DNA of 64,000 bases from Patiria miniata (GCF_015706575.1 NW_024037060.1:2792515-2856514); one strand, 5' to 3'; positions 46,116 to 51,424 are shown, numbered from the stretch's first letter. The notes: generated by a model from the sequence alone, not told the origin. Numbers and translations: made by a program.

Positions 46116-47264
46116 CCATTTAGCCGTACAACGGCTTTATGGAAATATGAATAAATTGCCCTCTAGCGTCAAAAAAGGTCTCCCCTCTCCCGCTTTTCGA
46201 ATTTGCAGCTCTTGCTGTGGCCTGGAAATGTGGGAGAAATATTGTTGGGTCCCCCTTGGTGCCCCTTCATAACATACTGGTGCCCTCTCCCCCCCCCCCC
46301 CTTTTTTTTTTTTTTTTTTTTTAAAGTTCTGGCTACCACTGGATGGAAATGATAGCGTGTCCGGATCGAACTTTATACCTGTATCTATGGAGAGCAGAAA
46401 AGAGTCGTGTAGTGCTATCGAATTGGAGAACCCGTTAAGTCAGTGATAGTAGCCACTCCAAATGAACTGAATAGCATTTTGTGCGTTCTTGGACCAGTTT
46501 TACCAGGCCTTCCTTGCCCTACTGTCTCGTTCGTGTGCCCCAAGTTGACTGTTCCTCAGTTCCCTCCAAGTTCAGAAAACAAAGATTCTAAGTAAATTGA
46601 CAGATCCTAAGTTAATAGACATAATCTCTATGCGTGTTTTGTAAGTTATCGCCAAGGTGCGAGGCGTATTTGAACAACGAGAAACCATCGCGTCAAACTT
46701 TGAACTTTAAACAAGTGAGATAAAGGTCACTTGAACCTGATGTGGACACTGCAATCGTTAGATGTTCCAATTGAATTACTGTGAATTGAAATTAGGCTAA
46801 TGCGGTTGTTGTGTTATCATGTAACTACTACTCATACAAGGTAACTTTATTCATGAAAGTACTAACTTCGGGCTTCGTGAGTGCAAATCCGTGGTGTGTA
46901 ACTTCTTTGGCTTGAAGGTGAAGTAAAGGGTATGTTTCAATTCTTCTGGATACCGATATTTGTGGTAATATTTGAATGAATTATGTTGCCATAAAACTTT
47001 GTCCGTTGCAAAATATCATTATACTTACGATGTACTGGCCTTCATTCCTGATATAGGTATAGAAGGTTTTTTTTTCGAGAACGGAAAGTATTACCGATGT
47101 CTCCATGTATGAAATTACTATGGCTAAAAAACAAACCATGTAGCAAAACTGTTAAAGCTTTGCTTCGTGTGCCTGATCCGATCAATTGCCAGGGTTAAAG
47201 ACAACTCCTAAACAAAAAAGCACACACTAAGTTTTCTTTCTTGCAGTAAATTTCGTCCTGCAAC

Positions 47265-47378
47265 ATGAGAACCGTTGTTCTGTTGTGTTTGTGCCTCGTG
47301 CTGGTACTCGGCGATCCGCTGGCCCCACTCTACCACACTGAGGATCCTGTGCCCAACATGTACATCGTCAAAATAAAG
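47265..47378 (+). CDS. Subtilase gene coding exon 1: MRTVVLLCLCLVLVLGDPLAPLYHTEDPVPNMYIVKIK, a signal peptide and the start of the I9 propeptide. The exon itself begins at an acceptor at 47247, so a 5'UTR exon lies upstream.
   Basis: The ATG sits 18 nt downstream of the acceptor ttttctttcttgcag. The exon ends at a GC donor AAG|GCAAGT. The only GT alternatives break the frame or delete the YIVKIK propeptide motif. Confidence 0.8.
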
Positions 47379-47929
47379 GCAAGTCTTGAAAGTTTACATT
47401 TTTCTTAATCCCATTATTTTCTTAATTATTCGTTACCAGGTTGGTGATGGCAACGCCATTTGACCTGGTTTTTTTTTACGGTTAACATTCTGTAAAATTC
47501 TGTGAAGTATTTCAGACCTTCTCTATACCGTGTCCCGACTCCCGAAACTCTTGAATGTATGTAAACAAAACTACGTTCTGCTGCACAATATTTTCTTTAA
47601 GTCAAAGGAAGTAAAATGTTGTTGCTCTTGCAAAAGTATTTGTTACAATTAGAGAAAGCTTCACAGGAACAATGGCCGAACCCGGTGATCGTAACAATGA
47701 AACCATTAAATTGAATGTAGTTCATAAACTTCATACATAGCGGGTTTCAGTTGCCCCACATCGAAATGATACTCTCTGGTTTTACAGAAATTGCATGCGA
47801 TTTAATATTACCAGCAACCTTGATCCTACATCGAGGTTGTATAAATAAGGTGGAGATTTCTCCCTCACTATCGGCAATGCAACACTTTTTACAAAGTGAT
47901 GCCTTAACTTGAATTATCTTTCATAACAG

Positions 47930-48067
47930 GACAGTGTCGAAGCGGCTTTTCGAGAGGGCAGATTGCAAGAGCAGATGGGAAGGGCTGGACTTCTAACTGC
48001 TGTCAGGAGAACTACTCGTTTCTTGAACACTGTTGTTATGGAAATCCCGGAAGATAAAGTGGACTCG
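47930..48067 (+). CDS. Subtilase exon 2: DSVEAAFREGRLQEQMGRAGLLTAVRRTTRFLNTVVMEIPEDKVDS, the inhibitor_I9 propeptide.
   Basis: This is the only open frame. The acceptor is tcataacag and the donor is GTGAGC. Confidence 0.85.
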
Positions 48068-48230
48068 GTGAGCTGACTTTGCTACTTTTAACGCGATAAA
48101 TACCGAACTGGATGGGTTTTTTTTCGCCGAATGTAATTGTACTTGAGCGGGTAGATTAAAACAATTGAAACGGAGTTTTTTTTACATAGAAAGGGTGCAT
48201 AACTTGTATCGTTAGCTGCGCAAGGGCGGA

Positions 48231-48524
48231 TCCAGAGGGAAGCAAAAGGGGCCTTACGCCCTCCCCCCCCCCCCAAAAGTACAAATTATTTTTTTAAAGT
48301 GACATCGCAATAAAGGCCACCACTGCTTCCCCACAATCTTTTCCTCAAAAAAATTAGTTAAAGTGGTCAGAAATTGCTTCAGATCGCACTACAGGGCATT
48401 TAGAATCCAAAAGATATTTGGGGACCCCGCACCGTCATTTTTTTGTACCAACTTTTTTGGGGGACGACAATTTTTTTGGGCCCGAAAAAAAATTGTATTT
48501 TGGATCCGCCCTTGTATAGCTGCG
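48231..48524 (-). mobile_element. A hAT-like MITE copy B, inverted relative to copy A. Its TIR is CAAGGGCGGATCCA. An 8-bp target-site duplication TAGCTGCG is intact on both flanks. It sits in subtilase intron 2.
   Basis: The terminal 14-bp inverted repeats are exact. The flanks read …cgtTAGCTGCG|caaggg… and …cccttg|taTAGCTGCGcg…. An 8-bp TSD is characteristic of the hAT superfamily. Confidence 0.75.
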
Positions 48525-48959
48525 CGCCGGCAGATTTGAATTTGGTTGAATAAGTTGCCGCGGAGATGGAGGTCTCTATCAACGAGATAATCAAATCCCA
48601 GTCTTGTCAATATTGGCAACGCTACCCGCCAGTACCCGGTAAATTCCGAGCATACCTCACGCGCCCGCTTTGGGCCAAGACTATACGTCCGAATTTGTCT
48701 ATGGCTTGAAATTATAGACATACTGAAGCGGCTGACCAGAGATACTGACCGAATGCAAGTAGGCTAATAGTTAATCTAACATTTGGTCGGATCTTGGGGA
48801 TTTTCTAACTTTAGTGGACCTTGACGAATATTACCTTCCTCAAAATAAAATATTTTCAACATCAACTTGAGCATTAGTTCTACTTGTGTAATTTTTTTCT
48901 CTGAGAAGTGAGCTTCATAATGGATTTTCAATGGGCTGGATTTTCCGTGAATGATTCAG

Positions 48960-49431: not shown

Positions 49432-49686
49432 GTGACGGTGAGGGCGTGCGTGTTTACGTGATTGACACGGGAGTTCGCCACACCCACGAGGAGTTCGAGG
49501 GCCGAGCCCACCTCGGGTACGACGTGTTCGATGACGGCTGGGGCGGCGGCGACTGCGGCGGGCACGGCACACACTGCGCCGGTACCATCGGTGGCAAGAC
49601 GTACGGTGTGGCCAAGAAGGTTACCATCTGGGCTGTCCGGGTACTGGACTGCTCCGGGTCGGGGACTTGGTCCGGTGTCCAAGAAG
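49432..49686 (+). CDS. Subtilase exon 4: [55 protein letters not shown]…[16 protein letters not shown]. It contains the catalytic Asp (DTG) and His (HGTHCAG).
   Basis: The exon is GC3-rich, about 68% GC. It ends at a second GC donor GAAG|GCAAGT. Alignment to proteinase K (GSGQYSTIIAGMDFV versus [15 protein letters not shown]) requires this donor. Confidence 0.85.
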
Positions 49687-50037
49687 GCAAGTTGGTTTCA
49701 GACAAGTATTTGAAAACGTCCTTTCTACCGATTATTCTACAGGGAGGCTCCTGAACTATAGAGTGTGTCAGCTCATGCCAAAAATGCATACCCCCGATCC
49801 AAGGCTCAGTCTGTGCGATCCTGTGACCTAGAAGTTGATGTACCAATTAGCTAAGACCAAACCTGGCCAGCTATGAGCAGGTCATTCAACCATCCACATC
49901 CTGATTACTGAATGTTTTTCTTCTATGCATGTTCGTGCGATCAGACCATGCACAGGCCATATGCTTAAGCAAGTAGACCCATCGCCTGGCTATTGTATTA
50001 CCAAATTTGATTGTGAATTCTTGATCTTGAACTCCAG

Positions 50038-50225
50038 GTATGGACTGGGTCATAGGTCATGCAGCTACTGCCCCTTCGGTTGCCTCCATGTCCCTGGGGG
50101 GAGGTAAGGTAGAATCCATCAACAATGCCGTGACCAGGATGCATAACGCGGGGATAACCGTGGTTGTATCGGCGGGAAATGACAACCGACCGGCATGCAT
50201 GAACTCACCGGCTAGCGCTCCCAAA
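50038..50225 (+). CDS. Subtilase exon 5: MDWVIGHAATAPSVASMSLGGGKVESINNAVTRMHNAGITVVVSAGNDNRPACMNSPASAPK. It contains the oxyanion-hole Asn.
   Basis: The acceptor is aactccag and the donor is GTGAGT. The exon is collinear with proteinase K …SLSLGGG…AAGNNNADA.NYSPAS.P. Confidence 0.9.
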
Positions 50226-50773
50226 GTGAGTATAGAACAAGACCGCGTCTGAACATTAACTGAGACAAAATGACGTCATGCTTTGTTGACATATTTGTTC
50301 TCTTATTGGTGTTTGGTGGCTCTCGTTCCCCACTTGGCTCTCAAAAGAAAGCGCGCTTGTAAACAAATCGTGAGGTCATTTTGTCTCTGAGCTGTGAAAA
50401 TTGGCTACGCCTGCATGATTACTGAATCTACTTTCCACATCAACTGCCGGCCGTAACCCAGTGTGTTTTGCCGCCGTGCAGACTACTCACACAAAACAGC
50501 GGAGACATCGCGTGCACCACGCGGAAAACCAGACCCCTGCATACACGGGTGCAGAATTAGCTATGGCGTTCATTATGTATTCAGGGCATTTATTGATTAA
50601 AAAAAATCATAATGCGGAAAAGCCCTATGTTCTGTTGCAAACAGACATAGACCTCTAGTTATGTCCTTCAACGCTGGCGCTCTTTATCAGCTTGCTCTTA
50701 ATCGAGGGGTACTTCGGCACGAAGTCTATGTCACAATTTTAACCCCACCTCTGTTTTCTTATAATTCATTCAG

Positions 50774-50945
50774 GCCGTTACAGTTGGTTCGACGACGGAT
50801 ACCGATGCCCGGTCCTATTTCTCAAACTACGGGACCTGTGTGGACATCTTTGCCCCGGGGAGCTCCATCCTGAGCGCCGGTATCAAATCGGACCGTGCGG
50901 TGGCGACCAAGAGCGGTACATCCATGGCTTGCCCGCACGTCTCTG
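50774..50945 (+). CDS. Subtilase exon 6: [58 protein letters not shown]. It contains the catalytic Ser (GTSMACPHV).
   Basis: The acceptor is ttcattcag and the donor is GTAATG. Confidence 0.9.
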
Positions 50946-51287
50946 GTAATGACAGCTAGACCGCTACTACAACTCCCTCCCCTTGCACACAAAAGTACCC
51001 GTACCCGAAGCTCAACTATGACCAGTGAATCCGGGATACAAATGCCGAGGAGGGGGGGGGGGAGGAATATGCCCTACTTTTTCACAAGGAGGATGGGTCA
51101 TAAGATCTTCCCTACCATTTGCATTACAAAAAAAAATCATAAAGAATTCTCTTTGTGTGAGTATACCTTGTGATGGATTCCTAGACGTCATGGAAGCTTA
51201 AGAAGTGCCATTAATAATGAGAAAAATATCATACCTTTGCTGTCTAATAACCATCCAATTCTTACCTACATTTCCACCTTCTGACAG

Positions 51288-51424
51288 GTGTAGCAGCAAT
51301 GGAGCTTGGTAAGAACAACAACCTGGATCCCTCAGATGTCGCCAACATTCTCATCAAAAGGGCCGTCAAGGACAGGGTGGCCAATAAGGGATCGGACTCG
51401 GTTAACCTTCTTCTCAGGGTTTAA
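51288..51424 (+). CDS. Subtilase exon 7: VAAMELGKNNNLDPSDVANILIKRAVKDRVANKGSDSVNLLLRV*, ending at the stop TAA at 51422-51424. There is no C-terminal extension domain.
   Basis: The acceptor is ttctgacag. The frame joins exon 6 to give PHVSGVAAMELGK, which matches subtilase PHVAGAAALL. Confidence 0.85.

Follow-up and report, generated by a model that had tools for sequence, protein, structure and literature searches.

The 64,000-nucleotide stretch of the Patiria miniata (bat star) genome analysed here (GCF_015706575.1, NW_024037060.1:2792515-2856514; hereafter the window, in whose numbering all positions are given) carries on its plus strand, at 47265-51424, a gene of seven coding exons for a subtilase of the proteinase K subfamily. 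We regard this gene, with a probability of about 85%, as an ordinary, annotated and vertically inherited P. miniata member of the large echinoderm family of proteinase-K-like (PK-like) genes. The positions of its introns link the compact, apparently active PK-like proteases of the Ambulacraria to PCSK9, where a distance tree does not. The RefSeq annotation, the expansion of the family in echinoderms (which has been published) and the existence of GC-AG donors as a minor intron class are already known.

Gene model and identity

Mapping was carried out with an exact spliced mapper which permitted GT or GC donors and AG acceptors. Only one exon chain was obtained for RefSeq protein XP_038058169.1 ("aqualysin-1-like [Patiria miniata]"). 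Its coding sequence of 1134 nucleotides (nt) specifies 377 amino acids followed by TAA, and since this product is 100% identical to the RefSeq protein over its full length the gene is one that has already been annotated. No second subtilase copy is present in the 64-kb window. The features of the gene are as follows.

47265-47378, plus strand: coding exon 1 (114 nt), with the start codon, the predicted signal peptide (residues 1-16, 47265-47312) and the first part of the propeptide
47379-47929, plus strand: intron 1, phase 0, GC-AG, donor AAG/GCAAGT (the slash marks the exon border)
47930-48067, plus strand: coding exon 2 (138 nt), propeptide, with AlphaFold helix 39-56 and strands 63-66 and 72-76
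48068-48959, plus strand: intron 2, phase 0, GT-AG, equal in alignment column and phase to PCSK9 intron 2
48960-49089, plus strand: coding exon 3 (130 nt), in which the propeptide ends and the mature enzyme begins (SWGLDRIDQRDLPL; boundary near 49016)
49090-49431, plus strand: intron 3, phase 1, GT-AG, equal in column and phase to PCSK9 intron 3
49432-49686, plus strand: coding exon 4 (255 nt), with Asp139 (49464-49466), His172 (49563-49565), Cys169 and Cys201
49687-50037, plus strand: intron 4, phase 1, GC-AG, donor AAG/GCAAGT, equal in column and phase to PCSK9 intron 5
50038-50225, plus strand: coding exon 5 (188 nt), with Asn260 of the oxyanion hole (50178-50180), the substrate-binding segment SMSLGGG, and Cys266
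50226-50773, plus strand: intron 5, phase 0, GT-AG, equal in column and phase to PCSK9 intron 6
50774-50945, plus strand: coding exon 6 (172 nt), with Cys297 and the catalytic Ser325 (50921-50923, in GTSMACPHV)
50946-51287, plus strand: intron 6, phase 1, GT-AG, equal in column and phase to PCSK9 intron 7
51288-51424, plus strand: coding exon 7 (137 nt), with the helices at the C-terminal end of the catalytic domain, and TAA (51422-51424); no domain follows

The hydrophobic N-terminus MRTVVLLCLCLVLVLG/DP, in which the slash stands at the putative cleavage site, can be read directly in exon 1.

Protein architecture and catalytic machinery

The sequence-only reading, an earlier description made from the DNA without database searches, had proposed a compact proteinase-K-type S8A subtilase composed of a signal peptide, an I9 propeptide and a catalytic domain, and this description holds. 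The sole Pfam match is to PF00082 (Peptidase_S8; E = 1.9e-42). The catalytic motifs, the oxyanion Asn and the GTSMACPHV sequence on which the description was built are all in place, as VIDTG (D139), GHGTHCAG (H172), AGND (N260) and GTSMACPHV (S325). It was also correct in denying the protein a P-domain and a Cys-rich C-terminus: Pfam analysis of the product revealed neither PF01483, which sets it apart from the kexin/furin proprotein convertases, nor the Cys/His-rich domains PCSK9_C1, C2 and C3. The C-terminal end lies 52 residues past Ser325 rather than the 45 that had been counted. An NCBIfam search gave only sub-threshold matches, to unrelated bacterial subtilase equivalogs.

The best matches in the PDB are the Serratia proteinase-K-like enzyme [2e-91; 2b6n], aligned between residues 107-375 of the window protein and 7-274 of 278, and aqualysin I [2e-88; 4dzt]. 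Proteinase K [1e-56], PCSK9 [4e-52], thermitase [1e-34] and subtilisin [2e-30] match more weakly, and the ranking of structures by Foldseek agrees with that by sequence, the proteinase-K-type enzymes being nearest. The mature forms of the bacterial and fungal enzymes begin to align at residues 103-108 of the window protein. In an alignment of 40 homologues the catalytic triad, N260, C169, C201, C266 and C297 are invariant; the four cysteines align with those of the aqualysin disulfides Cys67-Cys99 and Cys163-Cys194, and would be expected to form the same bonds. As far as its sequence can tell, the product is confirmed as a compact, putatively secreted S8A subtilase of the proteinase K subfamily.

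The AlphaFold model has a mean pLDDT (predicted local distance difference test) of 87.6 and a pTM (predicted template modelling score) of 0.88. Its N-terminal part adopts a beta-alpha-beta-beta-alpha-beta prodomain fold (strand 28-37, helix 39-56, strands 63-66 and 72-76, helix 79-86, strand 91-102) which is packed on the catalytic domain. With the prodomain included the model superposes on single-chain PCSK9 and on pro-subtilisin E with template modelling (TM) scores of 0.77-0.79, and it also superposes on the PK-type enzymes. In sequence, the alignment to pro-proteinase K (8rse) covers residues 19-344, and that to prodomain-bearing PCSK9 starts at residue 29.

Intron positions and the link to PCSK9

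For the comparison of gene structures the Acanthaster planci model was mapped after two extra N-terminal residues (MP-) had been dropped, and the exon borders of the hemichordate Ptychodera flava were read by hand. The PCSK9 reference was the gene of the gibbon Hylobates moloch (L005), the 12 exons of which mapped exactly; positions were compared as columns of a MAFFT alignment. The exon lengths of the window gene (114/138/130/255/188/172/137) match those of the A. planci orthologue, and those of a paralogue from Asterias rubens are the same except for 185 in exon 5. In the sea urchin Lytechinus variegatus (L003) and in P. flava (L004) introns are found at the same six positions and in the same phases. 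Both of these possess an additional phase-0 intron just 5' of the xDCNGHGTH sequence, which divides the 255-nt exon into 113+142 or 107+142 nt and which the asteroid clade has lost. Orthologues or paralogues were recovered by database search from all five echinoderm classes and from hemichordates.

Five introns of the window gene (2, 3, 4, 5 and 6; phases 0, 1, 1, 0 and 1) coincide in column and phase with introns 2, 3, 5, 6 and 7 of PCSK9. The chance that five of six introns would match seven sites among approximately 1020 positions is about 1e-10. Intron 1, common within the Ambulacraria, is not common to PCSK9, being 14 residues from PCSK9 intron 1. The additional intron of the urchin and hemichordate genes lies six residues before the catalytic His and gibbon PCSK9 intron 4 lies seven residues before it, both in phase 0. 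Because the gibbon has one extra Gln at the acceptor, this is probably a sixth shared intron, at a point where the alignment is ambiguous.

The five shared positions and phases imply a single intron-bearing gene in the deuterostome ancestor, from which both PCSK9 and the PK-like genes of the Ambulacraria descend. The introns predate the split between Ambulacraria and chordates, and hence were not gained after a lineage-specific acquisition, as the earlier description had suggested. The ancestor of PCSK9 can accordingly be pictured as a small secreted proteinase-K-type enzyme which lacked the Cys/His-rich tail.

Three minor observations were made on these reference loci. The extra Gln at the gibbon exon 5 acceptor (L005 13375; RFHRQ/QASKC compared with the human query) is consistent with a NAGNAG tandem acceptor. 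The P. flava sequence contains two tandem, near-identical copies of the homologue (L004 3001-7206 and 11625-15907), and the annotated "isoform X1" (P0034) fuses exons 1-6 of the first copy to exons 7-8 of the second. In the Ptychodera assembly the reading frame of exon 7 is off by 1 nt in both copies.

Sequence similarity and phylogeny

Identities to the window protein were calculated over 274 catalytic-domain columns, and the proteinase K and subtilisin BPN' sequences were checked to be identical to their PDB entries. The A. planci orthologue shows 88% identity in the catalytic domain (82% over the protein), followed by asteroid paralogues (67-71%), bacterial aqualysin-type enzymes from many phyla (55-60%), other ambulacrarian clades (52-58%), proteinase K (44%), PCSK9 (34-36%) and subtilisin BPN' (33%). 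A neighbour-joining tree (200 bootstraps) was constructed with one fungal sequence and with deuterostomes as the only animals. It unites the window gene with the A. planci orthologue (100%), places both in an asteroid-specific clade of seven sequences (100%), and separates the Ambulacraria plus aqualysin-type bacteria from proteinase K, PCSK9 and BPN' (78%). The bacteria form a group with 62% bootstrap support, and support for ambulacrarian monophyly is low.

All of the named non-ambulacrarian sequences among the best 120 database matches are bacterial, the remainder of the non-ambulacrarian ones being unnamed metatranscriptome or metagenome sequences. The marine metatranscriptome matches (P0016, P0018, P0046, P0068 and clusters; JGI, and MERC/Tara ERR1711945, ERR1711962 and ERR1712064) are intron-less contigs of approximately 1.3-1.6 kb which encode 360-400 amino acids. 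The tree places them among the sequences of echinoderms, and they probably represent transcripts of echinoderm larvae in plankton samples.

The protein had earlier been likened to bacterial and fungal enzymes and set apart from PCSK9-like subtilases. The first half of this comparison stands for bacteria, since enzymes of the aqualysin, Serratia and Vibrio type are the nearest outside its own animal family; the second half is contradicted by the five introns which coincide with those of PCSK9. The resemblance to the bacterial enzymes, namely aqualysin I of Thermus (4dzt), the Serratia enzyme (2b6n), Vibrio PA-44 (1s2n/1sh7) and the Meiothermus keratinase (5wsl), extends over the whole mature domain almost without gaps. 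They share with the window protein the triad, the oxyanion Asn, the two disulfide positions and an N-terminal I9 propeptide. The window protein differs from them in an additional free Cys in HGTHC and in SMAC. Their genes are intron-less and most specify a C-terminal pro-sequence or a PPC, P- or PKD domain, whereas the window gene shows neither trait. Proteinase K of the fungus Parengyodontium album and the cuticle-degrading proteases belong to the same subfamily, with the same size and architecture and a free Cys in HGTHCAG, but the disulfide positions of proteinase K are different and it falls outside the group of Ambulacraria and aqualysin-type bacteria.

The closest relatives, the PK-like subtilases of echinoderms and hemichordates, are also annotated as "extracellular serine proteinase-like", "cuticle-degrading protease" or "proteinase T". 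Like the window gene they encode proteins of about 370-385 amino acids with a signal peptide, I9 and S8A, they have the same exon-intron structure, and they are 45-82% identical. Some urchin paralogues carry N-terminal CUB domains, unlike the window protein. A preprint on metazoan convertases (10.1101/802215) describes a patchy distribution of PK-like genes in animals, which are lacking in 15 of the 23 genomes of its survey and reach up to 62 loci in Strongylocentrotus purpuratus. Its authors also record such genes from Capsaspora and Acanthamoeba and argue for a very deep origin, and they cite older accounts of PCSK9 homologues from amphioxus, sea cucumber and gastropods.

Origin of the gene

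The sequence-only reading concluded that the gene had an unusual history, either as an old horizontal acquisition or as a fast-evolving lineage-specific protease. The results do not bear out either suggestion. The genes closest to it are ordinary orthologues and paralogues from echinoderms and hemichordates, which agree with it in exon lengths and in the position and phase of their introns. The locus shows synteny with that of Acanthaster, and a catalytic domain which is still 55-60% identical to bacterial enzymes is not that of a fast-evolving protein. We would expect the gene to have descended, within an asteroid-specific clade of the ambulacrarian PK-like family, from the intron-containing deuterostome gene which also gave rise to PCSK9.

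A recent or lineage-specific transfer into this sea star, or contamination of the assembly by bacteria, might be suspected from the superficial resemblance to bacterial proteins, the name "aqualysin-1-like" and a G+C content somewhat higher than that of the surroundings. This has next to no probability in view of six spliceosomal introns, five of them common to PCSK9, synteny with A. planci, and orthologues or paralogues with equal intron positions across five echinoderm classes and the hemichordates; the excess of G+C at third codon positions (GC3) is modest and is present in the orthologue too. Judged on these sequence comparisons, recent transfer is excluded. A literature search on horizontal transfer of subtilases into echinoderms returned nothing relevant.

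A much older event is a different matter. The catalytic domain resembles bacterial enzymes to the same degree as it does other ambulacrarian paralogues, and this leaves some probability for a very ancient bacterial origin, in which the whole deuterostome (or older metazoan) PK-like/PCSK9 lineage would derive from an aqualysin-type gene taken up before the deuterostome ancestor and later colonised by introns. We consider this unlikely, though it has more in its favour than any other alternative discussed here. The identity to bacteria of many phyla equals that of the other ambulacrarian clades and greatly exceeds that of fungal proteinase K; the named non-ambulacrarian sequences among the best 120 matches are exclusively bacterial; the 78% bootstrap split groups Ambulacraria with bacteria; both aqualysin disulfide positions are conserved; and the genes are missing from many metazoans. 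Against it, the genes are also reported from Capsaspora and Acanthamoeba and the authors of the survey favour a very deep origin, a slow catalytic core combined with fast PCSK9 and fungal lineages would yield an identical pattern of similarity, the bacterial homologues mostly have C-terminal extensions which are missing here, and the split comes from a distance tree of the composition given above. Such a capture would explain why a sea star protein is 55-60% identical to those of Thermus, Serratia, Lysobacter and Acidobacteria compared with 44% for fungal proteinase K, and it would make the medically important PCSK9 a protein of bacterial descent as well. The high similarity to aqualysin-type enzymes makes the deep origin of the animal lineage a fair question.

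Several points weigh against our interpretation of the gene as an ordinary family member encoding a secreted protease. The I9 propeptide scores 14.6 bits in Pfam, below the cut-off of 21.2 (E = 0.056). We accept it as real because homologues from Diadema, Antedon and Ptychodera pass this cut-off, pro-forms of related enzymes align with it and the model has the prodomain fold. In the tree PCSK9 is found on a very long branch near the root, outside the Ambulacraria, bacteria and fungal proteinase K. Common ancestry with PCSK9 thus rests on intron positions and not on the tree, and the placement is best read as reflecting rate acceleration, long-branch effects and the limits of resolution, rather than as evidence against common descent. 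The use of both GC donors in the mRNA, and likewise secretion, autoprocessing and enzymatic activity, are predictions made from genomic and protein sequence, and the pstl1 gene of the expression studies cited below is a candidate match to this paralogue.

GC-AG introns

Introns 1 and 4 both begin with AAG/GCAAGT (donors at 47379 and 49687), while introns 2, 3, 5 and 6 are of the GT-AG type. The identical GC donors at two of six introns had been noted earlier, as had the need for both of them in the protein; this was found to be so, the single exon chain which fits XP_038058169.1 exactly requiring both. The A. rubens paralogue has GT at all six donors including the sites homologous to those of introns 1 and 4, and in possessing two GC donors the window copy is unlike the Asterias and other homologues compared here. 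In the A. planci orthologue the intron 1 donor is AAG/GCAAGT, identical to that of P. miniata, and the intron 4 donor is AAG/GTATGC. The GC donor of intron 1 is therefore older than the split between Patiria and Acanthaster, and that of intron 4 arose later, in the Patiria lineage, since A. planci has GT there.

A T-to-C change in a strong donor is the usual origin of GC-AG introns, AAG/GCAAGT is the textbook compensated GC-donor consensus, and introns of this class make up about 1% of all introns. Both donors of the window gene are, by their sequence, readily described as single T-to-C changes at position +2 of U2-type introns in donors which otherwise conform perfectly to the consensus. Two GC-AG introns in six are uncommon, with P about 1.5e-3 against a background of 1%, yet no special evolutionary story is needed. 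A literature search on the frequency of GC-AG introns in echinoderms returned nothing relevant.

The GC donors could conceivably be artefacts of a sequencing error or of a wrong model, with the real transcripts using GT donors nearby, and each junction does have GT-AG alternatives, no more than 45 nt away, which keep the frame and bring in no stop codon. Each of these, however, would remove or exchange residues which are conserved from bacteria to PCSK9, as in YIVKIK/DSV and SGVQEG/MDWV. The GC donors sit precisely at sites homologous to GT donors, the one in intron 1 was found independently in the A. planci assembly, and the RefSeq protein requires both. Together with the textbook consensus these observations make an artefact very improbable.

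Base composition

The coding sequence has a GC3 of 0.635, with values for exons 1-7 of 0.68, 0.46, 0.54, 0.77, 0.59, 0.70 and 0.61. Rough estimates for the neighbouring genes are about 0.53 for conserved blocks of the upstream thioredoxin-domain gene and 0.52-0.60 for the downstream immunoglobulin (Ig)-like gene; an exon with a Frizzled-type domain at 1593-2051 has 0.61. Among homologues the values are 0.668 (A. planci orthologue), 0.50 (Asterias) and 0.48 (Lytechinus). Exons 3-7 had been described as markedly GC3-rich relative to neighbouring genes. An excess does exist (0.635 compared with 0.52-0.61), but it is modest and is common to the A. planci orthologue; it is not a signature of foreign DNA.

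Proposed function

A signal peptide (approximately residues 1-16, cleaved after about G16) would direct the protein to the secretory pathway. By analogy with other members of the family, the I9-type propeptide (approximately residues 17-103) would act as an intramolecular chaperone and temporary inhibitor; autocleavage close to residues 100-105, immediately ahead of SWGLDRIDQ, would then remove it. The predicted mature enzyme, of about 273 amino acids and 28 kDa, would employ D139, H172 and S325 with N260 in the oxyanion hole, be braced by aqualysin-type disulfides C169-C201 and C266-C297, and function most likely as a broad-specificity extracellular endopeptidase.

The role of the enzyme is most likely digestive, in exocrine cells of the gut. 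"Aqualysin-1-like (pstl1/PstI)" is listed with the digestive enzymes that serve as markers of exocrine pancreas-like cells in the larval gut of P. miniata (10.64898/2026.09.20.752982), and is likewise listed for larvae of H. crassispina (PMC11817407). The main texts of Perillo 2016, Paganos 2021 and Paganos 2022 make no mention of Pst, subtilisin or aqualysin. An immune role is possibly an alternative: according to a reference which cites the work, sea-cucumber members have been published as "PCSK9 paralogs" whose expression is immune-inducible.

PCSK9 itself raises the question of whether the product is a general protease at all. The vertebrate protein has the same fold with an I9 prodomain, to the extent that the model superposes on its single-chain form with TM scores of 0.78-0.79, and it is a binding protein rather than a general protease. 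The window protein might similarly cleave only itself and thereafter, with its prodomain still in place, have a binding or regulatory function, a view favoured by the ancestry and gene structure common to both, by this superposition and by the naming and inducibility of the sea-cucumber relatives as reported in the citing reference. PCSK9, however, has three C-terminal Cys/His-rich modules (PF18459, PF18463 and PF18464), five further introns and an insertion before the catalytic His. The window protein is without these modules, its catalytic core and the segments which bind substrate (SLGGG, AGND) show 55-60% identity to active proteases of bacteria compared with 35% for PCSK9, and family members are listed among digestive enzymes. 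We think it improbable that self-cleavage is its only proteolytic act, and prefer a secreted endopeptidase.

Genomic neighbourhood

The order of genes, a thioredoxin-domain gene, the subtilase and an Ig-like transmembrane gene, is colinear with that of A. planci (L001). The neighbours of the subtilase gene are as follows.

34290-43311, plus strand: multi-exon thioredoxin-domain (PDI/OST3-like) gene, upstream, colinear exon by exon with A. planci
53576-54909, minus strand: Ig-like single-pass membrane gene, downstream

In the Ig-like gene open reading frames (ORFs) at 54415-54909 and 53576-54502 overlap in different frames, which implies that a short intron or a frameshift lies in the neighbourhood of 54415-54502. 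A. planci sequence related to this gene is found at two places, 21424-22897 and 26585-27767 of L001.

The introns of the subtilase gene contain two repeat structures. In intron 2, at 48214-48521, 21-nt terminal inverted repeats (AGCTGCGCAAGGGCGGATCCA and TGGATCCGCCCTTGTATAGCT) are separated by 266 nt which include C-rich, A-rich and T-rich runs; this looks like a small insertion of the MITE (miniature inverted-repeat transposable element) type. In intron 5, at 50262-50387, the two arms of a 30-nt inverted repeat are 87% complementary and lie 66 nt apart; this is possibly a hairpin-forming sequence or a transposon remnant.

The minus-strand ORF at 1593-2051, which contains the Frizzled-type cysteine-rich (Fz) domain (PF01392; E = 4e-10), is probably an exon of an unrelated gene. 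The region 29000-32000 includes one of the most GC-rich 2-kb intervals (0.49), with a strong AT skew of up to 0.15, and only 49001-51000, which holds subtilase exons, is as high (0.498). Within this region a plus-strand ORF at 30428-30928 encodes low-complexity P/A/S/Q repeats (QPAxQPxS...), and is probably a simple repeat rather than a gene.

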